From assembly GCA_900547775.1 (NCBI GenBank), contig URHW01000001.1, positions 65,762 through 129,761 on the forward strand: a DNA stretch of 64,000 nt. The letters run 5' to 3'. Positions within the stretch are counted from its first letter, which is position 1, and each line of letters begins with the position of its first letter. Shown piece after piece: positions 17,764 through 59,473 of the stretch. The DNA is from an uncultured Mycoplasmatota bacterium (GTDB lineage: Bacteria; Bacillota_I; Bacilli_A; RF39; UBA660). The translations under genes and the position numbers were made by a program. The notes below the pieces were generated by a model. The model had not been told where the DNA came from, made no database searches, and saw only the letters and a list, made by a program, of their open reading frames with translations.

Positions 17764-17916
17764 AATTTCCTCCTTTCAGATGTGTTATAACATATCTTTT
17801 TAGAGGTATGCAAAGCGATAATTTTTAAAAATAGTTAACAGATTTTAAAGGATTGTTCTGACAAAATAAAAAATCTGTGTAAATTTAAATACAGATTTTT
17901 TATTTTATATATCTTT

Positions 17917-43984: not shown

Positions 43985-43985
43985 A

Positions 43986-45788
43986 TTATCCTCCACAGTG
44001 ATTTGCGTAGTATGCACTCATTGAGACGCCAGTATAGTATGCTGATTGGTCATATCCATAGGTTCTATATTGAACTCCGCCTCCAGTGGATTCGGCAGTT
44101 TTAAGTTGTGAACCAGTATTTTCTAGTACTAGGATGACATGGCCAGAGTTTGCGATAACATCTCCTGGAGATAGTTTGCTGAATGGAATGTGATCTCCAA
44201 GTGATAGGAATCCAGCAGCGGTATATGTTCCAGTTATATTTGCGGCATGCATTGCCCATGAAACGAAACCAGAGCAATCTAGTCCCTTGTAGTAGTCATA
44301 ACTACCGTTAGGTTTTTGAATACTTGCACCAATATTTGCACCCCACTGTCTATCAACAATAGGATTTTTTGCTACATGTCCTCCGCCATAGTAATATGGT
44401 AGGTGAAAACCTTTAGCATGAAGGCCATCGATAAGAGCAATTGCGGCTCTAGCCACTGATGCTCCACTACATCCACTACCAACTGCTGAGCGTATTTTGT
44501 TTTCGAGTTCAATTACGCCTGCTTCACCTATTGCTTCAACAAGGCTAGTACCTTTTAGCTCAGTACTATCAGTATTAGGTGGATATCCATAATCTGATGA
44601 AGCACCTGGTATTGTGTTTTTACTTAGTATATAGTTTATAACAATTTCGTGGATTTTTTTGTAAGTTTCTACATTGTAATGAAGGCCATCTACTGTTTCG
44701 AAATTATCTTTTATTTGTGAGTAAACGTCGATAAAGTTTTCGCCAAAGCCATTTTTCATAACTGTATTAAAGCCTTCAATATTTGCATTAGTTACTGAGT
44801 ATCCATTTTCTGTTTCTTTTGCTTCATCAACGGGATTGACACTCATTACATAGACACTTACTTCAGAATATTTATTTTTTAATTCTTGATATTTTGCAAG
44901 GTAGTTTGAACTATTTGACAAATCATTAACGCCAAATGCAAGAACGATAAATTTTTTACCTTCTATTTTAGTTTCTAACTCTGGTATCGCACTATCTACA
45001 AACCATGAATATCCAGCACCGTTTTGGGCGATACTACTGATGCTTTTGTTAGTAATACTGCTCATCATACCTACTATACGAGAGTCACCCATGTATATAA
45101 GAAGGTTTTCGGCTTCTGCTGCTGTGTATACTGAAGCATTATAGTTTGTATCTGAGTTGTATCCGACATCTCCTCCTTTACTTGTTAAATCAAGCATTGC
45201 TCCTGAGTTTGGCCCCATTATAATTAATAATATCATTACAAAGAAAAAGAAAAGACAAGCAGAGGCTATACCGATAATTAAAAATTTGTTTTTGAGTTTC
45301 TTTTTGGGAAATAGTGAAGTTGTTCCACTTCCTTTTGCGTTGTTGGAACCATTGTTATTGTTTGTGGCTTTTTCAGCGGCTGATACTGCTTTTTGAGCTT
45401 GTTCTGTTTTATCTATTGAGGTGGCTGCTCCAACGGCATCACTTACACCACTTTCATTTATTCGATTTGAAGCTTCTTGGATTTTATTTCCTAGGGGAAT
45501 TCTTTTGTTAATGTCATTTAGTGCTTTACCTACAATTTGACTAGATTTTCCACCAGTAAGTTTGTCGGCGCCTTTAACGATTGCTCCAGCTGCTACGGCA
45601 TGGGGAATTTTAGTTTTCATTGCAACATTGGCAGCATTACGAAGATTATTAGCATTATTTTCAATGTTTCTGGCATCTTCATTCTGCTCTATTTGCTTAT
45701 TATCTTCTGGACTTGAATCATTTTGTGTTTGTGCATTATCTTCCGGCATTAAACCATTAGACTTTGCTTTGTAAGTTTCATCATCCAT
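43986..45788 (-). CDS. Membrane-anchored cell-wall hydrolase: SGNH/GDSL esterase domain plus NlpC/P60 endopeptidase domain
   Basis: Hydrophilic N-tail, TM FLIIGIASACLFFFFVMILLIIM, SGNH blocks (GDSRIVG, FGVNDL, DGLHYN), and C-terminal NlpC/P60 (YYKGLDCSGFVSWAMH...GHVILV). Confidence 0.6.
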   Translation of the reverse strand: MDDETYKAKSNGLMPEDNAQTQNDSSPEDNKQIEQNEDARNIENNANNLRNAANVAMKTKIPHAVAAGAIVKGADKLTGGKSSQIVGKALNDINKRIPLGNKIQEASNRINESGVSDAVGAATSIDKTEQAQKAVSAAEKATNNNNGSNNAKGSGTTSLFPKKKLKNKFLIIGIASACLFFFFVMILLIIMGPNSGAMLDLTSKGGDVGYNSDTNYNASVYTAAEAENLLIYMGDSRIVGMMSSITNKSISSIAQNGAGYSWFVDSAIPELETKIEGKKFIVLAFGVNDLSNSSNYLAKYQELKNKYSEVSVYVMSVNPVDEAKETENGYSVTNANIEGFNTVMKNGFGENFIDVYSQIKDNFETVDGLHYNVETYKKIHEIVINYILSKNTIPGASSDYGYPPNTDSTELKGTSLVEAIGEAGVIELENKIRSAVGSGCSGASVARAAIALIDGLHAKGFHLPYYYGGGHVAKNPIVDRQWGANIGASIQKPNGSYDYYKGLDCSGFVSWAMHAANITGTYTAAGFLSLGDHIPFSKLSPGDVIANSGHVILVLENTGSQLKTAESTGGGVQYRTYGYDQSAYYTGVSMSAYYANHCGG

Positions 45789-45809: not shown

Positions 45810-46298
45810 TTATTTTTCGATTGTGTAACTATCTAAGTATACGGTATAATTCATAATACTTTTTTCTTTAAATATGAATGTATTGTTATCGCCATCTATA
45901 ATATAAAATAGTTTATAATTTGTTTTATCTACTACTGTGTATGAAACAACTTTTGCACTTAAAAATTTAGTTGAGTAAATGTTTTTTAAGGCATTTTCAA
46001 AGTCAGTATATGTTTGAAGTTTTTGTGATTTGTAGTAATCATCTATCTTGGCGTATGCTGCTTCTTTGTCATTTATTGTTAAATTTACAAAATCTGCAAG
46101 GTATTTTTTTGCCATATCTTGTTCAGTTACGTATGTGTATGTTACTTCATTGACTTCGTAGTTGTGAAGATATTGATAGTTGTCTATAGTATTATCTTCT
46201 TGTTCTTTTTTATTATATATAACGGAGAAAATAATAGCTCCTATAACTATTATAACGCATATTATTATTGATATTTTATCTGAATCTAGTTTTCTCAT
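45810..46298 (-). CDS. Bitopic membrane protein, candidate VirB8-like (PrgL/TcpC-type) component
   Basis: N-terminal TM plus an extracytoplasmic domain of about 130 aa, placed after the hydrolase as PrgL is in pCF10. The fold cannot be verified from sequence. Confidence 0.3.
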   Translation of the reverse strand: MRKLDSDKISIIICVIIVIGAIIFSVIYNKKEQEDNTIDNYQYLHNYEVNEVTYTYVTEQDMAKKYLADFVNLTINDKEAAYAKIDDYYKSQKLQTYTDFENALKNIYSTKFLSAKVVSYTVVDKTNYKLFYIIDGDNNTFIFKEKSIMNYTVYLDSYTIEK

Positions 46299-46300
46299 AG

Positions 46301-46804
46301 TTATTCCTCCTTAAAGATCTTTCCATCGTATGGAGTTATATCAAATAATTTTTGAGAGTTATCAATTGTAACAATTAGGTAGTAATCTCCTGCTTTAGAA
46401 CTTCCATCAATTGAATCTTCATATAATACACCTTTTATGTAATATTTATTTACTTTTTTACTTAACTTTTCTTCATACATTTTAGTTGCACTAAATGTTA
46501 AATTTTTCCCAGAAAAGTTATCCAATTTTGTTAGAATATTTTCTTCAGTAATTTTATTTTTACTTGTGTATGATTCATTAAGTACTTTAATAAGGGCTTC
46601 TTTGTTTTCGCTCGTTAAGTAGTTAATGTATTTTGTAGCACATCCGTTTGCAGTAAAGAAATCGGAGTAGTTTTCTACTAAATTAATAGATGATGAATTA
46701 GGGTTATCGTTAGAAGAATCGTTTTTTAATACTTTATTTATAATTACAGCACCAAGAATTGTAACTACTCCTATTATAATTATTATATATGTTTTCTTAT
46801 CCAT
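46301..46804 (-). CDS. Bitopic membrane protein, second candidate VirB8-like component
   Basis: Same architecture as the previous ORF (N-terminal TM plus about 140-aa domain). Confidence 0.3.
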   Translation of the reverse strand: MDKKTYIIIIIGVVTILGAVIINKVLKNDSSNDNPNSSSINLVENYSDFFTANGCATKYINYLTSENKEALIKVLNESYTSKNKITEENILTKLDNFSGKNLTFSATKMYEEKLSKKVNKYYIKGVLYEDSIDGSSKAGDYYLIVTIDNSQKLFDITPYDGKIFKEE

Positions 46805-46818: not shown

Positions 46819-48900
46819 CTAATATCCATGAACGAATATTTTACATTCTTTTTGACGTCTATTTCTTAGTCCTTGCTCAAATTGAGTTCCAGGCATGACA
46901 GCTGTTTCATTCCACCAATTTGTACATAACGCGTCAGTTGATCCATACGATGCATAGGCTTCGAAGAAACCATTTATATTTCCATGATTATATTTTAGAG
47001 ATGTTAAGGCGTCTAATTGATTATCATTTAAAGTTAATCCATTACTTGCACATAGTGCTTTTACTGATTCTCTATCTTGGTTAAGCCGGTCAGCAAAGAT
47101 TTGATCAACAACTGATTTATTCATAGTTGTTCCACAGTAATTCATATAATTATTTGTAGTTGTTAGGTTAATACCATATCTTTGAAATAGAACTACATTA
47201 TTTGCTAGAGTGATACCATGACCTACTGTTGGAATATCACCAGAGTTACAGTAGACTGTATAAGTATCTCCTGATCCTACGCTTCCTTCTAACATTTCGA
47301 TAAGTTCTACTAAGTTTGATGACGCAGATGAGGCTGGTCTAGGATTTTTTTGATCTACATAGTTTAAGGGATCTACTCTTGTTGATATATCAGTTCTTAC
47401 TTCAAAATGTAAGTGTGTTCCTGTAGAACGACCTGATGAACCTACTTTAGCGATTACTTGTCCTTGACGTACTGAATCATTTACTTTTACATTAATTGTT
47501 CCTTCATGAAGGTGGGCATATAGTGTGTACATTCCATCAGAGTGACTTATCATAATGTAGTTTCCGTAACCTCCACCGCAATTTTTATCACCAAATGATA
47601 CGCAGTTATTGATTACTTTGGTTACAATACCATCTTTAGAAGCAATGACGTTTACTACGCCAGCACTTCCTCCTGGAGCAATGTCGATTCCTGTATGTCC
47701 GCTGTTTGCTGCTCCAGTTATCGGGTCTACTCTAAGTCCAAACATACTTGTTATTGTAGTTGGTACAGGTTCCCCTGTAGCATATGTTATTCCGCCTTCT
47801 TCAGTTGTTTCTGCTGATCCAATTGGCCACCAAAATGCATTTGGATTTCCTGCACTAGTGTAATTTACAATATTATCTTCTTGTCCATAATTATTTAGTA
47901 AGTCTTTAATCATTTCAACTATTTTTTTTCTAGCTTCGGTGATATCATCGATATTGGCTTCTTTTTCAGCCTCGGTAAGTTCAGTATTTCTTTTTTTACC
48001 TGTTTTTTCTAATATTTTGGTGTAGTAGTTGCTTAAGTGAGGCTTTTTATCAAAGTAGTTTCCTTTTATTAAAAACTCCCAATATTTACTTTCTGCTACT
48101 TCTTGAGCATTGTTAACTTTATAGTCGTAGCCTGAGTAACCACCGCTTGCGGCTTCATTTTTACATTCATCTTCAGCCTCAGATTTTATTCCAAAGAATG
48201 ATAATACACCACTATTTGCAAGAACTTTTTCCCAGAAACCAACGAAATCTTGTTTAATAAGGTCCTTGCATACACCATTTTCTAGAATAGCCATGCTACC
48301 TACGCATTCGGTAGTTGTTGTACCATCTTCATTTTGGATTGTTGTTGGCGCATATGTTCCATAACATTGTGAACGATATCCTAACATTGATTTTATTAAA
48401 AGTTTAATGCTATCAGATTCGTTTTCCCAATATGATGCATCATATTCTTTGTCAATATCATAATCAGTATCTGATTCATCTCCTGTATAAGGATTACTTG
48501 ATGATCCAGTTACTTCCTTATAATATTCTCCTGAATCGGCAAATAAGTCTGGATCTAGTTCAAAAAATGCAGTCATGATAATTATTTTATCATCAATAAA
48601 CAATCCTCTTGCTTGATATTTTGCGAGTAATTTATATAGCCTTGTGTAGAAAACTCTTTGACTTGCAATTATTCTTTCTTTACATTTATCTATTTCCGGT
48701 TGATTGTCATAGTCTTCACTACATAAAAATGTCCAATAGCCTAAATTTTCTTCTGCAAATTTGTCAAAATCAAAATCTGCATATTTGAAACTTGCTGCTT
48801 TCGTTATGTTTGGACTAAGGAAAAAAACTATTAAAAAGAAAGGTATTAGTAAAATACCTATTTTTAATAGTTTATTAGTTAAATGTTTAAAATTAAACAT
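46819..48900 (-). CDS. Secretion-associated peptidoglycan hydrolase: M23 peptidase plus GH24 phage-type lysozyme domains (VirB1/PrgK/CwlT analogue)
   Basis: Signal-anchor N-terminus. M23 motifs GHTGIDIA and GSSGRSTGTHLHFEV. GH24 motifs LEG..D..T, DALTSLKYNHGN and FEQGLRNRRQKECKIF. Confidence 0.75.
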   Translation of the reverse strand: MFNFKHLTNKLLKIGILLIPFFLIVFFLSPNITKAASFKYADFDFDKFAEENLGYWTFLCSEDYDNQPEIDKCKERIIASQRVFYTRLYKLLAKYQARGLFIDDKIIIMTAFFELDPDLFADSGEYYKEVTGSSSNPYTGDESDTDYDIDKEYDASYWENESDSIKLLIKSMLGYRSQCYGTYAPTTIQNEDGTTTTECVGSMAILENGVCKDLIKQDFVGFWEKVLANSGVLSFFGIKSEAEDECKNEAASGGYSGYDYKVNNAQEVAESKYWEFLIKGNYFDKKPHLSNYYTKILEKTGKKRNTELTEAEKEANIDDITEARKKIVEMIKDLLNNYGQEDNIVNYTSAGNPNAFWWPIGSAETTEEGGITYATGEPVPTTITSMFGLRVDPITGAANSGHTGIDIAPGGSAGVVNVIASKDGIVTKVINNCVSFGDKNCGGGYGNYIMISHSDGMYTLYAHLHEGTINVKVNDSVRQGQVIAKVGSSGRSTGTHLHFEVRTDISTRVDPLNYVDQKNPRPASSASSNLVELIEMLEGSVGSGDTYTVYCNSGDIPTVGHGITLANNVVLFQRYGINLTTTNNYMNYCGTTMNKSVVDQIFADRLNQDRESVKALCASNGLTLNDNQLDALTSLKYNHGNINGFFEAYASYGSTDALCTNWWNETAVMPGTQFEQGLRNRRQKECKIFVHGY

Positions 48901-48918: not shown

Positions 48919-50709
48919 TTATAGTCCTCCACCTGAGCCAAATGAATCTAGTTCATCTTGAGTTAGAACTACATTTATTCTCATACGTCTGTTACCGCAG
49001 ACAAATAAAGCCTCACCTTGACTATATGTCTTAATGCTTTCTTTCTCATTGTCGTTTAAGTCAATTAATCTTGATAAGTCTTCAACTGCTTGTTTTTTTA
49101 ATCCCATTACTAAGTAATATGCGGCATTATCAAAGATTGCTTTACCATGAACAAAAATATTTTCAGCAGCAAAGTCTGTTGGTTGCTGTGTAATGATAAT
49201 TGTTCCAGTATTGTATTTACGACTACGTCTTTGAATTTGTGCAAGGAACTCGGCACCTAATTCATTTTTGCTTGATAATAGAACATGAGCTTCATCTACA
49301 AACATAACTGTATTTGTAGATTTATCTAAACATAATCCCCATGCATATTTTAGGATATTGAAGAACAAAGCATTTCGAATATTTTCATCACTATTCATTA
49401 GTTCTTTAATATTAAATACGATGAAATCACTCTTAGTTTCAATCGTAGTGTGACCGTTAAAATAGAACCTTAATTCTTTTACGAATGGTCTAATTCTTAG
49501 TTCTAGACGCTCCATGACATCTTTTTCTCTAGTTGCTTCTGGCATTGATAAAAGTTTACCTTTTATGGTTGCATAGACATCATCAAAGATTGGAAAGTCT
49601 TTAGATGTAAATTTACTAAAGTCTGTATTAAAGTCAATGCCAAATCTTTTATAAGTATCTTGAACTACTTCACTAAACATTGCTAGAACGTCTTCTTCAA
49701 TAGATGGATAGTAGTATTTCATGAAGGCTTTTAGTGATTGTAAGGTTCTTGTTAGAACTGTATATCCTAATCCTTCTTTAATCTCATCTTCATCAGCATC
49801 AAAGATTACTTCCAGTGGGTTTACCATACCAAATGCTCCACCACGGCCTAAGTCAATGAAGTCTCCACCAAAATTGTGAGTCATTTCACTTAATTCACCT
49901 TCTGGGTCGATTGCTACTATTTTACATCCGTTTCTGATGTGAGTTCTAAGCATTAATTTAGCAGCTGTAGATTTACCACTACCTGATGTACCCAAAATAA
50001 TCATGTTAGCATTATTTCGATTAAATTCTTTTTTTGTTTGATATAAAAATTGGTTAAATAAAACTACACCGCCAGAGAAATCAACACCTAATAATGTGCT
50101 TGATCCTGGATCTTTAATGCTATCAAATACGAATGGATACATTGCTGCTATTGTTGGACTTGGTATAGGGATACCTACTCTTTGCTCAACATCTTGTTTT
50201 GGGAATATTGGAATCATAGATTTTAAGACTTTTTCTTGTTCAAACATCATTGGGATTCCTCTCATACCCATCGCGTCAAGATAATTTCTAACTTGCATCT
50301 TTTTATTTTCTAATTCTTCTTTAGTATCAGCAGTTAACATGATATGCATTTGAAAGTCGAATATTTTTGATTGAGTTGCTGCTAGCATTTGGACAAATGA
50401 TTCTAAAGATTCATAGTCTTGACGAATTCTTTCTTGAAGAGTTCTTTCATTTTCATGTTGATAACGTTCTTTTAAGTCAGCAATTTCTTTATTAATCATA
50501 CGACTCATTGTTGAAAAGTCGATCGGAATATGTTTAATTACTACTTTTACTCCTGGTAAGTTAGTAACGTTTGCTAGAAACCCTGGCCCGATTATTTTAG
50601 GATAACTTATGATAGTTAATATTGTTGCATATTTATCGCTAATCATAAATTCATTTACGTCGAATTTCATACCTTTAGGAGCTATTTCACTTTTAAATGT
50701 ATTAGACAT
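48919..50709 (-). CDS. VirB4/PrgJ/TrsE-like ATPase, C-terminal 596-aa part
   Basis: Walker A ILGTSGSGKST, VAIDPEGELS, Walker B VMFVDEAHVL, and arginine-finger region QIQRRSRKYNTGTIIITQQ. Confidence 0.8.
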   Translation of the reverse strand: MSNTFKSEIAPKGMKFDVNEFMISDKYATILTIISYPKIIGPGFLANVTNLPGVKVVIKHIPIDFSTMSRMINKEIADLKERYQHENERTLQERIRQDYESLESFVQMLAATQSKIFDFQMHIMLTADTKEELENKKMQVRNYLDAMGMRGIPMMFEQEKVLKSMIPIFPKQDVEQRVGIPIPSPTIAAMYPFVFDSIKDPGSSTLLGVDFSGGVVLFNQFLYQTKKEFNRNNANMIILGTSGSGKSTAAKLMLRTHIRNGCKIVAIDPEGELSEMTHNFGGDFIDLGRGGAFGMVNPLEVIFDADEDEIKEGLGYTVLTRTLQSLKAFMKYYYPSIEEDVLAMFSEVVQDTYKRFGIDFNTDFSKFTSKDFPIFDDVYATIKGKLLSMPEATREKDVMERLELRIRPFVKELRFYFNGHTTIETKSDFIVFNIKELMNSDENIRNALFFNILKYAWGLCLDKSTNTVMFVDEAHVLLSSKNELGAEFLAQIQRRSRKYNTGTIIITQQPTDFAAENIFVHGKAIFDNAAYYLVMGLKKQAVEDLSRLIDLNDNEKESIKTYSQGEALFVCGNRRMRINVVLTQDELDSFGSGGGL

Positions 50710-51259
50710 TACTCATCACCGTCCCATACTCATTTTTTGCTCCCCCATTAAGGAAGTTCTGAAGCAAAAATTTTAAGTCTTCATCACTTGCTTGTCTTGA
50801 ATTTAGTCCACAACCGGCTAAGTTTGCAATCATGGTTTGAATTCTTTTTTGAACTACTTCTAATTTTTTATCTCTGAACAAGAAGAAATATTCTGTATCA
50901 ACTGCATTAACACTGCTGCCGCCAAACATCTCGGCTTTTTGAATATCCTGATTAATTAATTTTCTTACGGCTTGATTTTGCGCATTGTCATATTGAAGTT
51001 GTAGTTGTGATAAGTATAGTTTTATATCTACTGGTCTATCTGCAACTACTAGCCAAAATTCGTAGTCAAGTGTGTTATAAAAGTTCCTTAAGTTAAAGAT
51101 AATATTATTTTGTGTTTGATAATCTAATATGAAAATATTTTTGGGTTCAACTTTAATTCCTGTTACATAATAATTATTATTTAAGATAATCATTCCGTTT
51201 TGAATTGCTTTAACAGGTACCCAATCTTCAGAAAATTTACTTGTCTTCTGTTTTGCCAT
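50702..51259 (-). CDS. VirB4 N-terminal domain as a separate 185-aa ORF
   Basis: FYNTLDYEFWLVVADRPVD and upstream IILNNNYYVTGIKVEP match the CagE/TrbE/VirB4 N-terminal region. 8-nt overlap (ATGTCTAA) with the ATPase ORF. MSN occurs at both ends of the junction. Confidence 0.55.
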   Translation of the reverse strand: MAKQKTSKFSEDWVPVKAIQNGMIILNNNYYVTGIKVEPKNIFILDYQTQNNIIFNLRNFYNTLDYEFWLVVADRPVDIKLYLSQLQLQYDNAQNQAVRKLINQDIQKAEMFGGSSVNAVDTEYFFLFRDKKLEVVQKRIQTMIANLAGCGLNSRQASDEDLKFLLQNFLNGGAKNEYGTVMSNV

Positions 51260-51560
51260 AGCTATTACACCAACCTTTCCAATAATAAACTCGATTATTT
51301 GTATAATATGTGAATACGTTTTTGATAAACGTTCTAACGTTATGCTGATTTGGCAGAGGAACTATTAAGAACGTGCATACAAGAGCTGGAGTTAATATTA
51401 AGAATGCCGTTTTCATATCATTAGTTTGAATTGATAGCATAAGTACAAAACTTACTACTACTCCAGTTATGAAGATTATCAAATCCGTTGTATTGAATAG
51501 GCCCAATATCAGCATAGATTTTTTTGAGTTTGCTGGTATCAAGTAATTATTGTTTCCCAC
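51237..51560 (-). CDS. PrgI/VirB3-like small membrane protein
   Basis: 107 aa, two TM helices (MLILGLFNTTDLIIFITGVVVSFVL; AFLILTPALVCTFLIV), C-terminal NVFTYYTNNRVYYWKG. Sits directly upstream of VirB4. Confidence 0.5.
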   Translation of the reverse strand: MGNNNYLIPANSKKSMLILGLFNTTDLIIFITGVVVSFVLMLSIQTNDMKTAFLILTPALVCTFLIVPLPNQHNVRTFIKNVFTYYTNNRVYYWKGWCNSYGKTEDK

Positions 51561-51574: not shown

Positions 51575-52006
51575 TTATTTAATTCCAAATGAACCTAGAA
51601 GTGCTTTGCATCTATCAAGTGCTTTTCCTGAAAATAGATAATTTACAAAGTACTCAGTATTTGTATATCTGTCATCCTGATGTACTATTAGTCCTGCTTT
51701 TTTAGAAAATGAAGAATTAGTTCTAAGTGTTTTGTTAAGTTCTTTAACACATGCTCTGTATAAACTGGGATTTTCTTTCATAACTCTGTCTAAAAGACCT
51801 ACCATCTGTGTATAATAATATGTATCAATTTCTTTTAATGTTTTAAATCTTCTAAAGTTTCCAGAGTAAAATTCTTCCTTTTCATTTTCCCAAGCACTTT
51901 TTATTATGCTTTCTTCTCCTGATTGCGTGCTTAGTAATAATTCATATTGGGTACGATATTCTGTACATAATTTGCTTATAATTTTTGCATCAATTTTGTC
52001 TATCAT
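51575..52006 (-). CDS. Cytoplasmic hypothetical protein within the secretion operon
   Basis: 143 aa, no TM. Start ATG shares one nt with the upstream stop (TAATG). Confidence 0.35.
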   Translation of the reverse strand: MIDKIDAKIISKLCTEYRTQYELLLSTQSGEESIIKSAWENEKEEFYSGNFRRFKTLKEIDTYYYTQMVGLLDRVMKENPSLYRACVKELNKTLRTNSSFSKKAGLIVHQDDRYTNTEYFVNYLFSGKALDRCKALLGSFGIK

Positions 52007-54147
52007 TATTTACCATCCTTCTTTGCTTGTTCTGATGCTAAACTAGATTGACTCTTCGCAATTGAGTTATTAAGTGCCGTTTCTAAATCCTCATATTGTT
52101 TTGCAAATTGTGCATAATTAATGTTTTCGGACTTAGCTTGAGTTACTAAGTCATTTACCATGCCAGAAAGTTTATCTCTTTGTTCTGGGTCATCTATTGT
52201 AAATGCAACCTGTTCAAATTGTTTTGAAAGTGTTTGTGCATAATTGATGCATCCATCTTGTCCAAGTTTTTCTAAACTCTTTGCTTGTTCTGCTGATAAT
52301 AAATCTTTGTAAACGGCCTTAATTGTTTTTTCTCTATCGTTTGCTGTACCAAAATTGTATGTCTTGTCACCTACTGTAATTGAGTTTCCACTTTGTACTA
52401 CACGTTTTCCAGAGACACTTGCTAGTCTGCTTGCTAATTCAGCACTAGTTAGTTTACCTTGATATGAATCAGTAATAAGGTCATCTCTACCTTTTTTGAT
52501 GTTATTATATGAGCCTTTATTAGCAACGTTTTTCAAGAATGAACCAACTGTATTTTTTAGTTTTGTTTGATTATCTACAGAACGTTGTAATACTGAATTG
52601 CTTCCATCAGTAAGGTAGTCTGCAAATGTTGAAGCTGCATCCGCGATATTATCTGTCATACGGTCAAATACTGTAGAGTATTCTTTTGCTTTTTCTGCAA
52701 CTGCTTTTTTAATTTGCTCTTCACTCCACTCTGGATGTAATGTACGTAAAGTGTTTGTGTATTCTTCACCATGTTCCTCAATCCACTTATTTTCAAGTTG
52801 TCTATTATGTGCTTCTCTATCATCTCTATGCTCATCAGCGGTTGAACGCGCTCCGACAATTGTATCTTTTACTTTGGTAATATCATTAAGGCCTCTACTT
52901 TGAACCCATCCTTGACGACCGCCACCGATAAGTCCTCCAAAACCAGTTTTAATAACTTGACCAACGCTTTTTCCAGCACCAATTCCTTTTATTACATTTC
53001 CAACTGCTGTTGTTCCTGCAGCACCTAACACAGATGCACCACGTAATGCGTATTCATTTTCATTAAGTTTTTTCTTGATGGACATTTGAGGTATTTTAAC
53101 GCTGAAGATTTCTTCGAGAAGTTTCGGAGCATCTTTAGCAAATTTTAAGATTCCTAGAATTACTACTACTGTAGCAATAACATTAATAAAAAGTCCTCCA
53201 CCACTTGCAAAGATATTTATATCTGACACAAACGATATTAATAACATCGCAAAGTTTATTATGACTATTCTTTCAAAAACCTGGAGATATGTTTTAGTAA
53301 ATTCACTGAACCATTTGTCAAACTGACCACCTTTTGGCTTCGTTATCCTTAAAAATATTGGAATTGGAGCGATTAACTTTAAAGCGCCTAGTTTTGCTGC
53401 TCTAACGCCCAAATCAAGTGAAAATGATAAGAATAAATATGCTGCAACTACTCCGGCAATCGTGCTTAATGGAAATAAATATTCCATATCATCATCATAT
53501 ATTCCATCTTTTAGGTCTTCATCATGCATGAAGTTCCAAAGACCACCTATACCATTTTTAGCATTATCGGCCATTTCTTTGTATCTTGAACATAACTTGA
53601 CGGATGAGCTCTCACATTCGGTTAGCGTAACCGGCTCTTTGTTTTCATCTATCGGATGGTAAAATGCCGTAAAGATTGTTACCGAAACATTTAGAGCACC
53701 TTTCGTTTGTCCATTTTCACCAGAATCACTTGCGGTTGAACCCATGATAAGATTACCAATTGTGTTGTTTTCTATTATATGATTTTGAAATATTTGCATG
53801 TATTCACATATTAATGGAAATAAGGTAACTAAAACAATTGAAATTATTGTATTTTGAACAATATTTTTTACTGATTTTTCTCCTTTGCTCAATGAGTCAG
53901 GGTCAACGATTGCCAAGATTATATTATATGCAAAAACGAATAGCATGACTATTCCGATTATTGTATAAATCCTTCTGGATATTACACCAACATTTTCTGT
54001 TGAAAATACTTCTACTTTACTTACTACTTCAAATAGTTGATAACATATATTAATTGCTAAATAGATTACATAGTCAATTGTAAGAAGAATTCCATAAAAG
54101 GCATTTGATACCCAATTTCCAATTATACTTCCTGTGAGTGTTCCCAT
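52006..54147 (-). CDS. VirB6-like polytopic membrane protein (TrbL/PrgH/TcpH/ConG-type) with long hydrophilic C-terminal extension
   Basis: Start at MGTLTGS with AGGAGG 7 nt upstream. About 7 TM helices in the first 400 aa, a Gly-rich segment, then a roughly 300-aa charged C-terminal domain. Confidence 0.5.
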   Translation of the reverse strand: MGTLTGSIIGNWVSNAFYGILLTIDYVIYLAINICYQLFEVVSKVEVFSTENVGVISRRIYTIIGIVMLFVFAYNIILAIVDPDSLSKGEKSVKNIVQNTIISIVLVTLFPLICEYMQIFQNHIIENNTIGNLIMGSTASDSGENGQTKGALNVSVTIFTAFYHPIDENKEPVTLTECESSSVKLCSRYKEMADNAKNGIGGLWNFMHDEDLKDGIYDDDMEYLFPLSTIAGVVAAYLFLSFSLDLGVRAAKLGALKLIAPIPIFLRITKPKGGQFDKWFSEFTKTYLQVFERIVIINFAMLLISFVSDINIFASGGGLFINVIATVVVILGILKFAKDAPKLLEEIFSVKIPQMSIKKKLNENEYALRGASVLGAAGTTAVGNVIKGIGAGKSVGQVIKTGFGGLIGGGRQGWVQSRGLNDITKVKDTIVGARSTADEHRDDREAHNRQLENKWIEEHGEEYTNTLRTLHPEWSEEQIKKAVAEKAKEYSTVFDRMTDNIADAASTFADYLTDGSNSVLQRSVDNQTKLKNTVGSFLKNVANKGSYNNIKKGRDDLITDSYQGKLTSAELASRLASVSGKRVVQSGNSITVGDKTYNFGTANDREKTIKAVYKDLLSAEQAKSLEKLGQDGCINYAQTLSKQFEQVAFTIDDPEQRDKLSGMVNDLVTQAKSENINYAQFAKQYEDLETALNNSIAKSQSSLASEQAKKDGK

Positions 54148-54158
54148 TGTTTTTCCTC

Positions 54159-54506
54159 CTACTCTATGCAAGTTGTGTATGAATCATTGATGAAGCTTAA
54201 TAAAAGATTTAATATTATTGGCAAGAAAAATAATACTACTATTAAAATTAGCCTTGTAATAAGTTTTTTATTAACTTTTTTATATTCTTCTGGGTCTTTG
54301 TTCACTAAAGCAACTATATAGTCATAAGTTGAATAAGCAATTACCAGTATTGGTCCTAAAATTTTCATATATTTGAAAATATTTGATAAATCTTCCATTG
54401 TTGATTCACCTAATAGTCCTGAACATGTTTCTTCTGATAATGCATAAACATTATTATTTATAGTTAAAATTAAACCTAGTATTATAAGCCAAGCCTTTTT
54501 TTTCAT
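54159..54506 (-). CDS. VirB2/TrbC-like small membrane protein, paralog 3
   Basis: Start at MKKKAWLIILGLILTINNNVYA (signal peptide). Two hydrophobic segments (ILGPILVIAYSTY; LILIVVLFFLPIILNLL). C-terminal Cys. Paralogous to 55593..55919 and 57862..58263. Confidence 0.45.
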   Translation of the reverse strand: MKKKAWLIILGLILTINNNVYALSEETCSGLLGESTMEDLSNIFKYMKILGPILVIAYSTYDYIVALVNKDPEEYKKVNKKLITRLILIVVLFFLPIILNLLLSFINDSYTTCIE

Positions 54507-54574
54507 ATTAATCAAACCTCTATATATACAACATAATTTTAATATAAAATCAATCATATTGCAAGGAAAATGCT

Positions 54575-55483
54575 TTAATTATTTTTATATGCATTTTCAT
54601 TTTGATTTTTGGGTTCGTAAATATCAGTTATTCGAATAAATAATGCTTGGCGTCCCATTGAGTCATAGCTTTTATTGAATTTTTTTCTTGGAACTTTGAT
54701 TTCTTTTTCGTCTTTTAATGGGTCATTTATATAATAATTATTTTTATCCATACCAATTACTACAACAACATGTGCATTTTTTGGATATGTATAGGTTTTA
54801 GATTTATCGTAACTAAACCATTCATAAACTTCTTTGGCTTCGGTGTAATCGGTTGTTGTCCACACTAGGACAGGATCCCCACTTTGAACATATTCTTCTA
54901 GTGGCCTTTTGTCATTTGAGGTAAAAACGTGACCGGCAGTATCTTCGGGAAGCATTTCTTTAAATATAGAATATATAGAATTTTTTATAACTGGTAAGAA
55001 TGTTCCCCAGCCTCTTTTAGGATCGCTTGGGTCTCCAGCATAATATTCGCTAGGGTCTGGCCCGTAACGAACACCATTTTTTTCATAAACATCTTCTTTT
55101 GGAAGAAATGTATCAACATATGTTGCCATATCAATATCGATGCCAGCATAATTAAGTAACATTGTAGCACTAGCCACTTCACATCCATTTGGATAATCTG
55201 GATTTTGCTTTACTAGTGGAAAGTTTTTAGTAATGAAACTATATTGTAGGTTACTATAGTATTTATCTAATAAGTCTTCATACTCATATATACTATAATT
55301 ATTTCCTCCTTTTGAGAGTATTAGTTGGTTTGTAAAATAGTCATCTTTTAATGATGGAATTATTGCATGCTTTAATTTTTCTTTTTCACTAGTAAAAAGT
55401 TTATACCATATAAAATTGCTAGATATGATTGTTATTATTAATAAAATTATTATAAGTTTGTATTCTTTTTTCATATATATCAC
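54575..55483 (-). CDS. Membrane-anchored C39-like cysteine peptidase (Peptidase_C39_2/BtrH-like)
   Basis: N-terminal TM. NPDYPNGCEVASATMLLNYAG (catalytic Cys) and HVVVVIGMDKNNYYINDP (catalytic His). Confidence 0.6.
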   Translation of the reverse strand: MIYMKKEYKLIIILLIITIISSNFIWYKLFTSEKEKLKHAIIPSLKDDYFTNQLILSKGGNNYSIYEYEDLLDKYYSNLQYSFITKNFPLVKQNPDYPNGCEVASATMLLNYAGIDIDMATYVDTFLPKEDVYEKNGVRYGPDPSEYYAGDPSDPKRGWGTFLPVIKNSIYSIFKEMLPEDTAGHVFTSNDKRPLEEYVQSGDPVLVWTTTDYTEAKEVYEWFSYDKSKTYTYPKNAHVVVVIGMDKNNYYINDPLKDEKEIKVPRKKFNKSYDSMGRQALFIRITDIYEPKNQNENAYKNN

Positions 55484-55566
55484 GATTTAATTATAACAGA
55501 TTGTAATAGTAAAAGTATTTTTATAGTAAATATTTTACATTTTATTAGTTATTTTTACAAAGAAAA

Positions 55567-55590
55567 AAATCTCAGTAATCTGAGATTTTC
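55567..55590 (-). terminator. Strong rho-independent terminator inside the secretion locus
   Basis: Perfect 9-bp stem aaatctcag/ctgagattt with a 4-nt loop. A 7-nt T-run follows on the minus strand (A-run 55562-55569 on plus). Sits between paralog 2 and the C39 peptidase gene. Confidence 0.6.
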
Positions 55591-55592
55591 GA

Positions 55593-55919
55593 TTAGTCAC
55601 AATTCCAAGGACTTAAAATGCAGTCTTGACATTTTTTGAAGTTATCAACTGGCATATCTTTGTATCCATTGATAGTTCCAAATAGCCACATTACTACTGT
55701 TGGTACGAAGAAAATTAGCACGCCAGCAATTGCACGATACATTAAACGCTTACTAGCAACTTTAATATCATCATCTTTACTTCCAACTACTGCTTTTCCT
55801 AAATCGAACATACCATATCCAATAATTAATAATGGAATAGCTATTTTAAATACTGTTAGGATCCAACCAATAAATCCTAATACGTCTGACGCTTGATCAC
55901 AAAATCCGGTAACGTTCAT
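55593..55919 (-). CDS. VirB2/TrbC-like small membrane protein, paralog 2
   Basis: 108 aa. Hydrophobic segments KIAIPLLIIGYGMF and AIAGVLIFFVPTVVMWLF. C-terminal CQDCILSPWNC. No cleavable signal peptide. Confidence 0.45.
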   Translation of the reverse strand: MNVTGFCDQASDVLGFIGWILTVFKIAIPLLIIGYGMFDLGKAVVGSKDDDIKVASKRLMYRAIAGVLIFFVPTVVMWLFGTINGYKDMPVDNFKKCQDCILSPWNCD

Positions 55920-55978
55920 AATTCACATCTCCCTTACATAATTAAATTTTATCTAAATTTTTAAATATTGTCAACAAA

Positions 55979-57064
55979 TTATTTGAAAAGGCCGAAAAAA
56001 CTTGTACTTCCTTGTTTTCCAAACCCTAGTTTTAGTAATAATTTGTCAACTACTAATAGTCTGTCTGCTCGGTCGTTAATTACCGGCATATTATAATAAA
56101 CTTTAAATTTTGTTTCATATTCAAAGTTTGATAATTCTTCATCCTTAATTGCACTTTGATTTAATATTATTTTTCCATCTGCAATTTTTTCTTTAATGTT
56201 AATGTCTTTTTTTAGTGCTTTATTTAAACTTATTATGCCTGGATTTACTAAGTATAAAATATCCTGGCACAGATTTCTTTCTGATAAACCATTTAGGTCT
56301 ATAAGAATTATTTCTGTATCTTTTAAAGTGTTTATTTTATATTTTAAATCTTCTACTGATGTACAAAATGAAATGTCACTATCTTTTAAATATATTGAAT
56401 CTTGTTTAAACATTTCAAATGCTTTAACTTTATAGTTTATTCTTAGTTGTTTTAGTATCATGTACATAAGGGTAGTTGCACCAGCATGCTCAGTTACATT
56501 TTGAATACCTATAATTCTTGCACCTGTTTTAATAGATTCTTCGGCTCTTACATATCCTGGGTTGTAGTCATCATTTATATAAGAATTACTTGTATAAGGA
56601 TTACTTTGGAATGTTTGATTTCCAAATGTGTTTGGTCCCATTCTATTTAATTCTATACTTTGATTTTGTGCTTGACTTAAACTATTAATATATTTAGTAA
56701 CATCATTTAATGTGTTTGGGTGTGTTAATAAATAGTTTATGCCAGCAGCGTTTCTCGTAAAATTGTAATAGCCGTTTTGTACTAAAAGTGTTAGATAACT
56801 ACTGCTATTTACTAGTTCACTATTATTTAATAGAAGAACTGTTTTATTTGGCCCAAAGAAACTTAAAAATCTTAATACTTCTTTTATATCAAAGAAGTTT
56901 TTGATAGCGGTTATATCTATTACGGCTTTGCTATATAATAGATTTCCAAGTTCGGCTTCAATAGTTTCTCTAGTAAACTCTCCAGTTATGGTTTTAATTG
57001 AGTTAATGTCAACACTATCAATAACTTTACTATTTTGATTTTTAATTATTATGTTTATATTCAT
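55979..57064 (-). CDS. CpaE/TadZ-like ParA/MinD-family protein with degenerate Walker A
   Basis: N-terminal receiver-like region of about 150 aa. ARIIGIQNVTEHAGATTLMYMIL aligns to the CpaE P-loop G-x-K-G-G-x-G-x-T-T but lacks the Lys and second Gly. Confidence 0.45.
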   Translation of the reverse strand: MNINIIIKNQNSKVIDSVDINSIKTITGEFTRETIEAELGNLLYSKAVIDITAIKNFFDIKEVLRFLSFFGPNKTVLLLNNSELVNSSSYLTLLVQNGYYNFTRNAAGINYLLTHPNTLNDVTKYINSLSQAQNQSIELNRMGPNTFGNQTFQSNPYTSNSYINDDYNPGYVRAEESIKTGARIIGIQNVTEHAGATTLMYMILKQLRINYKVKAFEMFKQDSIYLKDSDISFCTSVEDLKYKINTLKDTEIILIDLNGLSERNLCQDILYLVNPGIISLNKALKKDINIKEKIADGKIILNQSAIKDEELSNFEYETKFKVYYNMPVINDRADRLLVVDKLLLKLGFGKQGSTSFFGLFK

Positions 57065-57075
57065 AGAATCACCAA

Positions 57076-57540
57076 TTAGAAGACGTCATTTTTAGGGAAA
57101 TATATTGGCTTTGTTTCACCTGTTACAGGGAATGTAAATATTTCACCCATTATTGGTAAGTCAACTCTAAAAAAGACAGTTACCTTGTAGTAAGTCTTTT
57201 TTATATTTCCATTAGTATCTTCTGTTTTAGCAATGCAATATTTGAATTTTCTTGAGTTTGTATTACTTGCTTCAAAACCGTGTGCACCTTCACTAGATTG
57301 TGATGATACATAATCAGGGCAACTACTATATACAAGGTAACCAACATTATTTAAATAGTCTGAAATTTCAGCAACTGTTGAGTCACTTACTCCTTCTTTT
57401 TTTTCAATAATATTTATAATACCATTTTTTACTTTGAAGGCTTTTGAGTAGTTTACAGATATAGCTAAAAAACTTGTAAAAAGTACTATAAAGACAATAA
57501 CGATAGAAAAAATCCAGGTTCCACCTATCGCTTCTCTCAT
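57076..57540 (-). CDS. N-terminally anchored extracytoplasmic protein (possible minor pilin/TadE-like)
   Basis: MREAIGGTWIFSIVIVFIVLFTSFLAISV anchor plus a beta-rich domain with two Cys. Confidence 0.35.
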   Translation of the reverse strand: MREAIGGTWIFSIVIVFIVLFTSFLAISVNYSKAFKVKNGIINIIEKKEGVSDSTVAEISDYLNNVGYLVYSSCPDYVSSQSSEGAHGFEASNTNSRKFKYCIAKTEDTNGNIKKTYYKVTVFFRVDLPIMGEIFTFPVTGETKPIYFPKNDVF

Positions 57541-57550
57541 AATTTACCTA

Positions 57551-57799
57551 TTAATTACCTGCTGCTTCGCTATTAGGACATTTAACGTCTACTGTAGTTT
57601 CACATGCTTCGTCTTCACAATAATAACAATCACATATTTCAGTAGTACAGTTTGGACAAGTGGCTGCTGAGCAATGAAGTTTAGATAAAATGTTTGATTT
57701 CATTGATGGCCAGATAAGTGTAGTAAACACTACTCCTATTGCAGCGATAGCAACTACTGCTACTGCAGTCATACTTAATTCACCTGAAGCTTCTTTCAT
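57551..57799 (-). CDS. Flp-like mini-pilin with Cys-rich C-terminus
   Basis: 82 aa: MKEASGELSMTAVAVVAIAAIGVVFTTLI (Gly plus a long Ala/Val/Ile helix, like class III or Flp prepilins but without EY), then 9 Cys in the last 40 residues. GGAGGAATAAATA RBS. Confidence 0.4.
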   Translation of the reverse strand: MKEASGELSMTAVAVVAIAAIGVVFTTLIWPSMKSNILSKLHCSAATCPNCTTEICDCYYCEDEACETTVDVKCPNSEAAGN

Positions 57800-57835
57800 T
57801 ATTTATTCCTCCTTATCTTAAATTAATTATATAAT

Positions 57836-57861
57836 AAAAAGAATTGTAAATCAATTCTTTT
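57836..57861 (-). terminator. Rho-independent terminator after paralog 1
   Basis: aaaagaattg-taaat-caattctttt hairpin directly after the stop, then a T-run on the minus strand. Confidence 0.5.
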
Positions 57862-58263
57862 TTAGCAATTGTTTGGATGGAATAGACACTCTGTACATGT
57901 TTCATATTCGCCTTGATAATTTGTCCAATCATTAACTGTTGATAGTGCTACGTCAATGATTGTTGGGAGTAACATAATGATTACTCCAGTTAAAATTCTT
58001 TTTCCTAATGTTTGAGCACTTTTCTTAAGTTCATCCTCTTTTCCGGCTTTTACGCTATTGTAGAAGATGAATATGCCTTGGCCAATTATTATCAATGGAA
58101 CAAATAGTTTTACAAACATAATTATATATCCAACAAACTTCATTACATTTTGGATTTCTTCTCTTGCACACATGTTTTCACCTACTGCTTCAGCATGTAC
58201 AGTAAGTGGTAATATTAATAGAACTAATAATAAATATTTGTAGTATTTTTTATTCGTAGTCAT
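57862..58263 (-). CDS. VirB2/TrbC-like small membrane protein, paralog 1
   Basis: Signal peptide YLLLVLLILPLTVHA. Segments KLFVPLIIIGQGIF and ILTGVIIMLLPTIIDVAL. C-terminal CTECLFHPNNC. Confidence 0.45.
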   Translation of the reverse strand: MTTNKKYYKYLLLVLLILPLTVHAEAVGENMCAREEIQNVMKFVGYIIMFVKLFVPLIIIGQGIFIFYNSVKAGKEDELKKSAQTLGKRILTGVIIMLLPTIIDVALSTVNDWTNYQGEYETCTECLFHPNNC

Positions 58264-59386
58264 AACCGTCGTCCTCTTTCTGCTCTGGCATTTTTGTTAC
58301 TAATTTATAGATTACATAGCCACATATTCCAAGTAATATTAAGATTAGAAGTACTAAACCAAAGTTGCTTGATTTTTTGATAGTTATTGTATAGTCTTTA
58401 GTGTCGCCGTTTTCAGCGGTTACAGTTACTACTACTTTACTTTTATTTTTTAAGTTAGAATTGTTTTTTATTTCATATGTTGATGAATCGCTTTCGGTTT
58501 CAACAATCATGTCTAACTTTTTATCACTTCTACTTATTTTTAATTTATATTCAGTTACATCTGTTTTAAATTCTAAGTTGTATCCTTGAATCTCAATTTT
58601 TGAAAGGTTTGTGTTACTATCTAATTCATCTTCATATGAAAGAATTATTCTGTATACACGGCTTGTATCATCTTCTGCTGTTACAGTTACTAATATTGGT
58701 TTATCAATATCAATATTTTCATTGTTTTCAATTTTAACTGTGGCTTTATCACTTTCTGGTTTAGCAGTAACTTCAATACTTGTTATATCTTTAGAGATTT
58801 TTAGATTGTATGTTTCAACTTCTCTACTAAAAATAAAGTCAGTATCTTTTAAATCTAGTTCTCTTAAATAATTGTTACTATCTTTTAAAGTAGTTGTTGT
58901 AGTCGTGGTAGTTGTTTGTGAGGTAGTTGTATTTGGTTTAGTATTGTTTGGACGATTTGGTTTTTTTGTTGTAGTCGTTGTTGTGGTAGTAGTTGTTTTC
59001 TTAGTAGTTGTTTGATAAGTTAGACCATTACTTGTTCTAGAGCAATCATATGATGCTAGTATTGCACAATATTTTGGATAAGCATCACTTCTACAAGCAC
59101 CACTATAAGCAGTACAAGAACTTTTAGCAACAAAATATAATGGGTCTTGATTACCATTTGAGCATTTTACTAGACCTTCTGTATAAAATTGTGTTTGCCA
59201 AGTTCCACTATAGCATGTTGCTTTGATGCAGTGACCGAAATATCCTTGATTAAAGTTTGCTTGCCCGTAACTTGCTTGAAAGTCTAGACATGTTTGATAG
59301 TCTTTTACATAACCGATATCTAGGGCAGCATTAACTTTTAATGGAACTAAAATTGATAACATAGCCATTATTATATACTTTTTCAT
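58250..59386 (-). CDS. Surface protein: Cys-rich N-domain, Thr-rich linker, two cadherin-like repeats, C-terminal TM anchor
   Basis: Signal peptide. Six or more Cys in the first 110 aa. Linker TTTKKTTTTTTTTTTKKPNRPNN. Repeats ending TYEIKNN..KVVVTVTAENGDTKDYTITIKK. C-terminal TM. Confidence 0.55.
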   Translation of the reverse strand: MKKYIIMAMLSILVPLKVNAALDIGYVKDYQTCLDFQASYGQANFNQGYFGHCIKATCYSGTWQTQFYTEGLVKCSNGNQDPLYFVAKSSCTAYSGACRSDAYPKYCAILASYDCSRTSNGLTYQTTTKKTTTTTTTTTTKKPNRPNNTKPNTTTSQTTTTTTTTTLKDSNNYLRELDLKDTDFIFSREVETYNLKISKDITSIEVTAKPESDKATVKIENNENIDIDKPILVTVTAEDDTSRVYRIILSYEDELDSNTNLSKIEIQGYNLEFKTDVTEYKLKISRSDKKLDMIVETESDSSTYEIKNNSNLKNKSKVVVTVTAENGDTKDYTITIKKSSNFGLVLLILILLGICGYVIYKLVTKMPEQKEDDGYDYE

Positions 59387-59394
59387 ATTACCTC

Positions 59395-59435
59395 CAAAAA
59401 AAGATACCGACTTGTTTAACCAAATTCAGGTATCT
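59395..59435 (-). terminator. Hairpin plus T-run between adhesin genes 2 and 3
   Basis: agatacc...ggtatct stem with a 20-nt loop. Its minus-strand T-run abuts the RBS GGAGGTAAT of the next gene. Confidence 0.35.
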
Positions 59436-59473
59436 TCAAATCTATATTAATAATATCATAAAATTATTAATAT

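Follow-up and report, generated by a model that had tools for sequence, protein, structure and literature searches.

Type IV secretion systems (T4SSs) of Gram-positive bacteria have been described without VirB2 pilins, and the single exception is that of the Patescibacteria, for which it was left undecided whether the pilin was borrowed from diderm systems or not (PMC12857230, PMC12102498). The question raised by the locus studied here is whether subunits of the VirB2 kind also belong to a T4SS of gut Bacilli. In the window, by which we mean the whole 64-kb stretch of contig URHW01000001.1, a minus-strand gene cluster of 24 kb (40.0-63.6 kb, about 30% G+C) encodes VirD4, VirB4, VirB3 and VirB6 components together with wall hydrolases carrying M23, lysozyme and NlpC/P60 domains, and it also encodes three small membrane proteins, here called Pil1, Pil2 and Pil3. 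A previous interpretation of this DNA from its letters alone (the sequence-only reading) had taken the three as paralogous relatives of VirB2/TrbC and had proposed that a neighbouring cysteine peptidase matures their termini; its premise that Gram-positive conjugation lacks VirB2 pilins agrees with the literature just cited. Our analysis leads to the view, held with moderate confidence, that Pil1-3 are paralogous VirB2-like subunits of the PF18895 type in a chromosomally fixed T4SS of Gram-positive type in gut Bacilli.

Three paralogous hairpin proteins and their family

Pil1 (133 aa, 57862..58263), Pil2 (108 aa, 55593..55919), Pil3 (115 aa, 54159..54506) and the peptidase (302 aa, 54575..55483) are open reading frames (ORFs) of the minus strand, and the positions and motifs quoted for them were confirmed. 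For Pil3 the longest ORF extends to 54557, and gene callers on identical contigs start the protein at MKKKAWL. In Pil1, Pil2 and Pil3, respectively, the first helix contains KLFVPLIIIGQG, KIAIPLLIIGYG and KILGPILVIAYS, the loop contains GKEDE, SKDDD and NKDPEE, the second helix contains LLPTII, FFVPTVV and FFLPIIL, and all three end in a tail with cysteine. When the proteins were aligned in pairs, the likeness was far above chance: the BLASTP E-values are 1e-21 for Pil1-Pil2, 2e-10 for Pil1-Pil3 and 5e-11 for Pil2-Pil3, with 25-34% identity over 65-100 residues. Searching all six frames of the window with a hidden Markov model (HMM) of the family found precisely Pil1-3 (E 1e-51, 1e-42, 5e-26). 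The three ORFs are true paralogues.

Their common design runs from an outside cysteine through a proline-kinked membrane helix, a loop with many K, D and E residues, an invariant arginine and a second proline-kinked membrane helix to the cysteine tail, and the residues invariant in the alignment are C7, P29, R62, P73 and C97. The cysteine directly before helix 1, which the sequence-only reading had overlooked, is invariant in the three copies and throughout the family. Pil1 consists of a signal peptide, Cys32, a first transmembrane (TM) helix with P56, the loop GKEDELKK, a second TM helix with P100 and a tail C-x2-C-x6-C. Pil2 has no signal peptide, only six residues preceding its first cysteine, and consists of Cys7, TM1, the loop SKDDDIK, TM2 and the tail C97-x2-C100-x6-C107. 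Pil3 has a signal peptide and a single cysteine in each of its tails. The signal peptides of Pil1 and Pil3, already proposed for two of the three proteins, are predicted to be of Sec type, ending in VHA before E and in VYA before L, and read from the sequence they look like ordinary short leaders with a K-rich n-region and a hydrophobic core. Two hydrophobic helices joined by a short charged loop within about 70-100 mature residues, which is the layout of VirB2-type proteins, were confirmed by a hydropathy scan, by the alignment and by an AlphaFold2 model of Pil2, in which helices at 6-45, 49-82 and 91-102 form a hairpin plus a short C-terminal helix at a predicted local distance difference test (pLDDT) score of 82.

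Regarding the wider family, a profile search started from the three sequences returned 167 clusters at 90% identity, none of them named and none with a precomputed Pfam domain. An exhaustive search with a 40-sequence HMM returned 9,846 representatives (50% identity) at E<=1e-3 and 4,470 at E<=1e-10, many of which measure 200-450 aa and end in the hairpin; ten of the representatives were looked up, and none has a name. The sole recurrent family is PF18895 (T4SS_pilin), matched by 27 of 40 members at E<=0.01 and by 16 of 42 at E<=0.001, and the scores behind the lowest E-values, 2.7e-6 and 1.1e-7, exceed the gathering cut-off. These matches are always in register and reach the last position of the profile; in a direction control, five of five sequences matched in forward direction and none of the five when reversed, so that the match is not a matter of mere hydrophobic composition. 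A curated family of pilin-like conjugal transfer proteins, NF045849 (Mbov_0395), was matched by Pil3 at 22.4 bits (E 7.4e-5, below the equivalog cut-off of 40), and the same scan gave no hit for Pil1 or Pil2 and a match for 1 of the 42 wider family members. The claimed resemblance to T4SS pilins is partly supported, by the PF18895 match and by the T4SS locus, and direct similarity to TrbC/VirB2 was not detected: PF04956 gave no hit at E<=1 for Pil1-3 and none at E<=0.01 among 40 relatives. We use the label 'VirB2-like' because of the link to PF18895, whose proteins are described as VirB2-like in PMC12102498, together with the topology and the gene context.

Cysteines, division of labour and the question of a filament

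Among 397 distinct family sequences, 310 have one cysteine in the N-tail and three in the C-tail and 65 have one and one, which makes the total even in 94%; sequences outside these two classes mostly look truncated. The N-tail cysteine and the first C-tail cysteine are invariant, and the other two tail cysteines are jointly present or absent. As the loop bears six K/R residues and all cysteines stand in the tails, both termini are likely to face outward, as in VirB2. Each Pil protein would then insert as a helical hairpin with its tails outside and its K/R/D-rich loop in the cytoplasm, the cysteine before helix 1 would pair with the first one after helix 2, and in the four-cysteine copies the other two would pair mutually. 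Such a disulfide, which the pattern of residues makes probable, would staple the N- to the C-terminus and so take, with no enzyme involved, the place that head-to-tail cyclisation has in TrbC/VirB2; metal binding by the four cysteines is an alternative to disulfides.

The three copies also differ in a way that suggests a division of labour. Pil2 is short in all loci examined, always present and the best conserved of the three, and orthologues of Pil1 in other species carry N-terminal extracellular extensions (total about 190-340 aa), as those of Pil3 likewise carry N-terminal extracellular domains. The strongest promoter-like site of the region, a sigma-70-like TTGACA-17-TAAAAT that is a consensus match only (11/12; 55946..55974, minus strand), lies in the 59-nt gap upstream of Pil2, and a terminator- or attenuator-like hairpin with an 11-bp stem and a T-run (55565..55590, minus strand) begins 3 nt past the Pil2 stop. 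Hairpins with a T-run follow Pil2 in 32 of 48 loci, with differing stem sequences; elsewhere they occur in 65% of cases after the 202-aa surface protein, in 35-47% after u82 and Pil1, and in 0-23% after the other genes tested. Being short, without signal peptide, best conserved and provided with its own promoter-like site and terminator-like hairpin, Pil2 is likely the major subunit. Its site of action, or the base from which it polymerises, would be the platform of VirB6, VirB3 and VirB4, given that VirB6 has been proposed as the platform that recruits pilins in Gram-negative systems (PMC12857230), and Pil1 and Pil3 would be fast-evolving accessory or display subunits. Pil3 overlaps the start of the VirB6-like gene by 13 nt and may be translationally coupled to it; since the two are one protein in the integrative and conjugative elements (ICEs) of Mycoplasma, the overlap and the fusion together point to direct contact between Pil3 and VirB6. 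As a separate observation, the gene of the 202-aa surface protein (59474-60082, minus strand) is followed by a terminator-like hairpin and T-run in 15 of 23 loci, a frequency like that of Pil2, which hints at attenuation at several points within the operon.

Several points weigh against taking Pil1-3 as VirB2-like subunits. The copies of the window stay below the PF18895 gathering score of 26.6 bits (26.0 for Pil3, 21.1 for Pil2, no hit for Pil1), which is also the reason why such genes remain unannotated. In hhalign comparisons, the family alignments reached probabilities of 0.4-1.4% against 11 real VirB2 proteins and the reversed controls 0.1-0.4%, the 11 being the non-redundant ones used from 120 PF04956 proteins collected with a VirB2 bait that shares 84% identity with its top hit. 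Searching PDB sequences with a profile gave only spurious matches to TM5-TM6 of G-protein-coupled receptors, and Foldseek with the hairpin model of Pil2 gave nothing significant, all E-values being above 4. Many family members bear N-terminal domains of 100-330 residues, esterase/lipase domains included, which would be unusual for a tightly packed pilin and would equally fit a membrane anchor. Moreover, it is uncertain whether disulfides would form on the exterior of an obligate anaerobe, and to our knowledge no filament has been demonstrated for any PF18895 protein. Homology to classical VirB2 was not detectable, the hhalign result being no better than the reversed controls.

One rival takes up these points by proposing that the three proteins are not pilins, but membrane-embedded accessory subunits of the T4SS channel or anchors for it, whose Cys-stapled two-TM hairpin docks on VirB6 and, in much of the family, tethers an extracellular passenger (adhesin or enzyme) where secretion takes place, and which form no filament; we consider this possible, though doubtful. 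Gram-positive T4SSs studied to date use adhesins, not pili (PMC12102498). The C-terminal position of the hairpin in proteins of 200-450 aa, found in the Pil1 and Pil3 orthologues and in most of the top 150 family representatives, speaks for such anchors, and so do the GDSL-lipase or esterase domains on some hairpin proteins, the fusion of Pil3 to the VirB6-like protein in the Mycoplasma profiles and the lack of a sequence link to filament-forming VirB2. However, Pil2 as the best conserved copy has no passenger domain in any species, its combination of promoter and attenuator is the signature of an abundant structural protein, and the only profile match of the family is to a pilin family. Besides, the N-terminus of known conjugative pilins faces outward, which is compatible with N-terminal display. 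On the reading of Pil1-3 as VirB2-like subunits, filament formation itself appears to us a doubtful prospect.

The secretion locus and its residence in the chromosome

In the direction of transcription, the cluster begins with surface proteins of 1181, 202 and 378 aa and continues with Pil1, u82, u154, u361 and Pil2; then come the Peptidase_C39_2 gene, Pil3, the VirB6-like gene, u143, the VirB3/TcpE-like gene, the VirB4 N-terminal domain and VirB4; the end is formed by the M23/lysozyme hydrolase, u167/u162, the NlpC/P60 hydrolase, the u239 lipoprotein, VirD4 and u252. The VirB3-like and VirB4 genes thus lie within 5 kb after Pil3, and the paralogues are 3.5-9.5 kb from VirB4. All features of the window located below are on the minus strand.

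A GTDB scan of species representatives, for which only Pil2-type sequences served as queries, gave 47 species-level genomes with about 50 loci, in which the order Pil1-u82-u154-u361-Pil2-Pil3-VirB6-VirB3-VirB4 is kept and two to four paralogue copies are found per locus. Cell-division genes with murC flank the cluster on one side and dnaI-dnaB on the other, with housekeeping genes around, and the same dnaB-dnaI or murC neighbourhood recurs in more distant members. The genomes are mostly labelled as uncultured Bacilli, several as Tenericutes, Mollicutes or Mycoplasma sp. CAG:877, and about 12 contigs belong to bins labelled Muribaculaceae, Phocaeicola, Acidaminococcus, Clostridium, Clostridiales or 'bacterium', several of which look mis-binned. 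In particular, the contigs of loci L014, L017-L019, L026, L037, L038 and L048 come from metagenome-assembled genomes (MAGs) labelled Phocaeicola vulgatus, Muribaculaceae or Acidaminococcus, and are short contigs that were probably mis-binned in these public MAGs. The host belongs to a gut lineage of Bacilli/Tenericutes that is low in GC, uncultured and known from MAGs. An identical Pil1 sequence occurs in about 4,965 indexed data blocks from public assemblies, on contigs above 1 Mb, among them contigs of ENA metagenome assemblies.

Between species, VirB4 is 83-89% identical where DnaI, and DnaB likewise, is 63-69% identical, in contrast to only 30-50% identity for Pil1 and Pil3, for the VirB6-like and the surface proteins, and for the hydrolases. 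This looks like a long-resident machine with a strongly constrained motor and fast-evolving exposed parts; horizontal spread of the cluster could also give such figures. The latter would fit a second rival, by which the locus is an ordinary ICE of the Mycoplasma type, the three proteins are its 'pilin-like' transfer proteins, and a relaxase or transposase lies outside the examined sequence. We judge this unlikely. In its favour, the coupling protein is kept (VirD4-type, 40909..43245; PF02534 at 184 bits, NCBIfam CD1115 family at 304 bits with a cut-off of 250), and the nearest curated families are the Mycoplasma ICE families Mbov_0395, 0396 and 0397 and the CD1115 VirD4. The N-terminal part of the Mbov_0396/MMCAP2_0566 profiles is matched by Pil3 and the C-terminal part of Mbov_0396 by the extended polytopic VirB6-like protein (52006..54171; profile positions 172-301). 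The Mbov_0397 profile is tiled in order by the VirB3/TcpE-like protein with two TM helices (51237..51560; positions 2-96 of this fused VirB4 profile), by the VirB4 N-terminal (TraC-like) domain as an ORF of its own (50702..51259; positions 97-280) and by the VirB4 ATPase (48919..50709; positions 294-891, 356 bits). The tiling across ORFs indicates a pilin-like/VirB6/VirB3/VirB4 module in common with Mycoplasma ICEs. Nevertheless, the equivalog scores are far under their cut-offs (22 vs 40, 32 vs 70 and 356 vs 590), the chromosomal slot from dnaB-dnaI to murC is the same in many species, and the surface components diverge in step with housekeeping genes or faster. No Pfam hit to a relaxase, integrase or DDE transposase, nor any other transposase domain, was found in the scanned ORFs of the 64-kb window or in the flanks seen, and neither a megablast of 10 kb nor a tblastn of Pil2 gave a match among the PLSDB plasmids.

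Two observations on these core genes may be added. What the Mbov_0397 profile has as one fused protein is encoded here by three separate ORFs, for the VirB3-like, the VirB4 N-terminal and the VirB4 ATPase parts. The hydrophilic C-terminal domain of the VirB6-like protein is hypervariable even between very close relatives, the whole protein of the window being 52-53% identical to those of L008/L009 and 82% identical to that of L001, despite 96-100% identity of Pil2.

The peptidase between Pil2 and Pil3 is, as had been noticed, a membrane-anchored enzyme of the C39_2 type, with an N-terminal TM anchor, the catalytic motifs NGCEVAS (Cys) and HVVVVIG (His), a match to PF13529 (E 9.5e-20, 72.1 bits, cut-off 24) and one to PF03412 (24.8 bits, cut-off 22). 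The gene is restricted to six of the about 50 loci, namely L001-L004, L008 and L009, the closest relatives of the window; it is missing from L010, where Pil2 is 92% identical, and from about 40-45 further syntenic loci, in which Pil2 and Pil3 are adjacent, and the termini of Pil1-3 show no correlated change with or without it. Because of this distribution in six loci only, the pilin-maturation idea is not supported, failing the co-conservation check that its authors had themselves suggested. Its same-strand position between two paralogues and its catalytic domain facing outward, to the side of the pilin tails, speak for an enzyme that trims or cyclises the Pil termini, as TraF does on TrbC in RP4, yet we consider such a role very improbable in view of the six loci, the unchanged termini without double-glycine-type leaders and the generic nature of its nearest annotated relatives. 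These relatives, at 30-34% identity, are 'C39 family peptidase' genes of Bacillus megaplasmids, mostly non-mobilisable. TraF, moreover, is a serine signal-peptidase-like enzyme and not of the C39 type. No S26/TraF-like maturation peptidase was found among the cluster genes scanned. The best reading is a recent lineage-specific insertion that is dispensable for the module, and a species-specific accessory role is possible. With the stand-alone Peptidase_C39_2 enzymes of Bacillus and relatives it shares the strong PF13529 match, the Cys/His motifs and the degree of identity just given, but it is inserted inside a T4SS operon and in one species group only. That the gene is a fragment of a bacteriocin exporter, the alternative once offered, was rejected on architecture: it is a stand-alone C39_2 enzyme with only an N-terminal TM anchor, ABC-exporter families match weakly (E about 0.007-0.05) and over the peptidase part alone, family scans found no exporter gene in the cluster, no double-glycine peptide lies nearby, and the Pil N-termini have no GG leader.

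In nearly all of the about 50 related loci with sequence on that side, the gene u361 (55979..57064) is the next one upstream of Pil2. No sequence-level family match was found for it, and its structure was predicted with database homologues. The resulting AlphaFold2 model (pLDDT 83) of this cytoplasmic protein has two alpha/beta domains, one receiver-like and the other MinD/ParA-like with a degenerate Walker A motif. With Foldseek, MinD, FlhG, HypB and ParF were hit with E-values between 1e-5 and 1e-4, and TadZ (3FKQ) was hit at E 7e-5 over both domains, yet with a root-mean-square deviation of 15 A. The predicted fold of u361 may resemble TadZ; no TadA, TadB or TadC is in the window. Two further neighbours, u82 (57551..57799; N-terminus MK(E/A)A(S/T)GEL..T, here MKEASGELSMT) and u154 (57076..57540; N-terminus MRE(A/S)IGGTW, here MREAIGGTW), combine near-invariant N-termini with a TM helix, N-terminal in u154, and hypervariable Cys-rich ends. 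Their N-termini look like processed pilin-type ones, and no Pfam family recurs among 28 orthologues that would mark them as Flp/TadE. Both are duplicated in L036, L037 and L040, and a duplication of u154 alone was detected in L042 and L054.

In a sister locus on a related metagenomic contig, the slot upstream of the Pil2-type gene (L056:5776-10414) is occupied by a DUF5411 protein, a 298-aa N-anchored protein that is CpaB-like by eye, a T2SSE ATPase (PF00437) and two polytopic proteins, a Tad-like or VirB11-like module that replaces Pil1-u82-u154-u361. From the neighbours u361 and those of L056, a helper set of Tad-like or VirB11-like kind seems linked to Pil2. In two related contigs, repeated nuclease genes of the DUF1016/YhcG type are inserted around murC and within the T4SS locus (L056:10595-12421; L057:5958-7802, 17630-17953), and may represent a mobile or defence gene breaking up the cluster.

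Among the other genes, u143 (51575..52006), between the VirB6-like and VirB3-like genes, encodes a soluble protein with no family match and is recognisable in some related loci only. The cell-wall hydrolase at 46819..48900 has Peptidase_M23 and lysozyme domains, with a VirB1-like role; u167 and u162 (45810..46804), single-pass membrane proteins of about 165 aa each, fit VirB8-like candidates by size and position. An NlpC/P60-domain hydrolase (43986..45788), a putative lipoprotein u239 with a C-terminal TM segment and no above-threshold family match (43298..44017) and a membrane-anchored protein u252 with no family match at the murC-proximal cluster end (40027..40785) complete this side. At the head, the three Cys- and Thr-rich surface proteins (58250..63635; 378, 202 and 1181 aa), each anchored C-terminally, are putative adhesins, two of them, those of 1181 and 378 aa, having Cadherin-like domains. 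They share Cys-rich N-terminal modules and poly-Thr/Asn linkers, and when u82 and the Pil tails are counted with them, almost all exposed parts of the machine are rich in cysteine, an unusual trait if the host is, as presumed, strictly anaerobic. A PHROGs search with ten proteins of the locus gave no useful match. Elsewhere in the window, an ORF at 31640-32641 (minus strand) joins a QueH epoxyqueuosine-reductase domain (20-193) to a prepilin-type N-methylation motif (194-219), and could represent a fused competence pseudopilin or else two neighbouring genes taken for one.

Known systems and the meaning of the family

The nearest parallel is found in the Patescibacteria, or Candidate Phyla Radiation (CPR), where chromosomal T4SSs that are poor in relaxases carry 2-11 divergent VirB2-like pilins in an array (PMC12102498). 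Those of Southlakia epibionticum and TM7x (PMC12102498, PMC12857230) share with the window a monoderm MPF-FATA-like T4SS with VirB3, VirB4 and VirB6, a chromosomal location with no relaxase nearby, and two-helix hairpins matching PF18895, and the paralogues are similarly divergent (25-34% identity in the window, about 25% on average there). In contrast, the host of the window is a gut lineage of the Bacillota (Bacilli), its copies fall below the Pfam cut-off, its locus has VirD4 and wall hydrolases, and its paralogues are interspersed with other genes and not in tandem. Possible further differences are the invariant N- and C-tail cysteines and the frequent N-terminal passengers of the window family. 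The Mycoplasma ICEs (NF045849, NF045889, NF045975) share the order of pilin-like, VirB6-like and VirB3/VirB4 genes, and among curated families theirs score highest with Pil3, with the VirB6-like protein and with VirB4. Unlike them, the window has Mbov_0396 split into Pil3 and VirB6 and Mbov_0397 into three ORFs, three paralogues and not one, a chromosomally fixed locus with no ICE hallmarks, and scores below the equivalog cut-offs.

With TrbC of RP4 and VirB2 of the Ti plasmid (PF04956), the Pil proteins have in common the small two-helix hairpin with a short charged loop and the place beside virB3/virB4-type genes. The termini are joined by a peptide bond in TrbC/VirB2 and probably by a disulfide in the Pil proteins; furthermore, Pil2 has no long signal peptide, the locus has no TraF-like peptidase, there is no outer membrane, and homology is undetectable in sequence. 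TrbC/VirB2 pilins build conjugative filaments outside the cell, and a filament of Pil proteins is hypothetical. The Trw system of Bartonella, with its multiple variable VirB2 (TrwL) proteins (PMC12857230), likewise has several variable pilin paralogues in one T4SS locus; it is Gram-negative, with classical VirB2 and no coupling protein, whereas the window has a coupling protein and only its accessory copies are highly variable. In the window, too, the surface parts evolve fast, a hint that an exposed structure is being varied.

What is already known is the kind of family, T4SS_pilin; what is new is the human-gut Bacillota host, the size of the unannotated family, the probable cysteine staple with the passenger variants, and the candidate Tad-like neighbours. 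This locus and about 10,000 unnamed related clusters would place the same pilin-type family within MPF-FATA-like T4SSs of the Bacillota, which would contradict the current textbook statement on pilin-less Gram-positive T4SSs and would give annotators a large set of proteins missed by standard thresholds. The disulfide staple replacing cyclisation offers a structural idea that can be tested. A widespread lineage of the human gut appears to retain a costly chromosomal secretion machine. The boldest version, that this is the first T4SS of the Bacillota with a VirB2-type filament, Pil2 being a stapled, pseudo-cyclic major pilin, Pil1 and Pil3 domain-bearing minor pilins, u82, u154 and u361 Tad-like helpers of assembly with a full T2SSE-ATPase module as their counterpart in L056, and the whole vertically inherited, relaxase-less and made for cell-cell interaction, not for the spread of a mobile element, is speculative and in our view improbable. 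The occurrence of the family in the Bacillota and the gene order shared with Mycoplasma ICEs argue for a pilin-like subunit as an ancient core component of monoderm T4SSs that has been overlooked. If the bolder version held true, strong selection would have preserved the cluster throughout a lineage of uncultured gut Bacilli with small genomes, in parallel to the essential T4SS of epibiotic Patescibacteria, and VirB2-like pilins would be ancestral to monoderm T4SSs.

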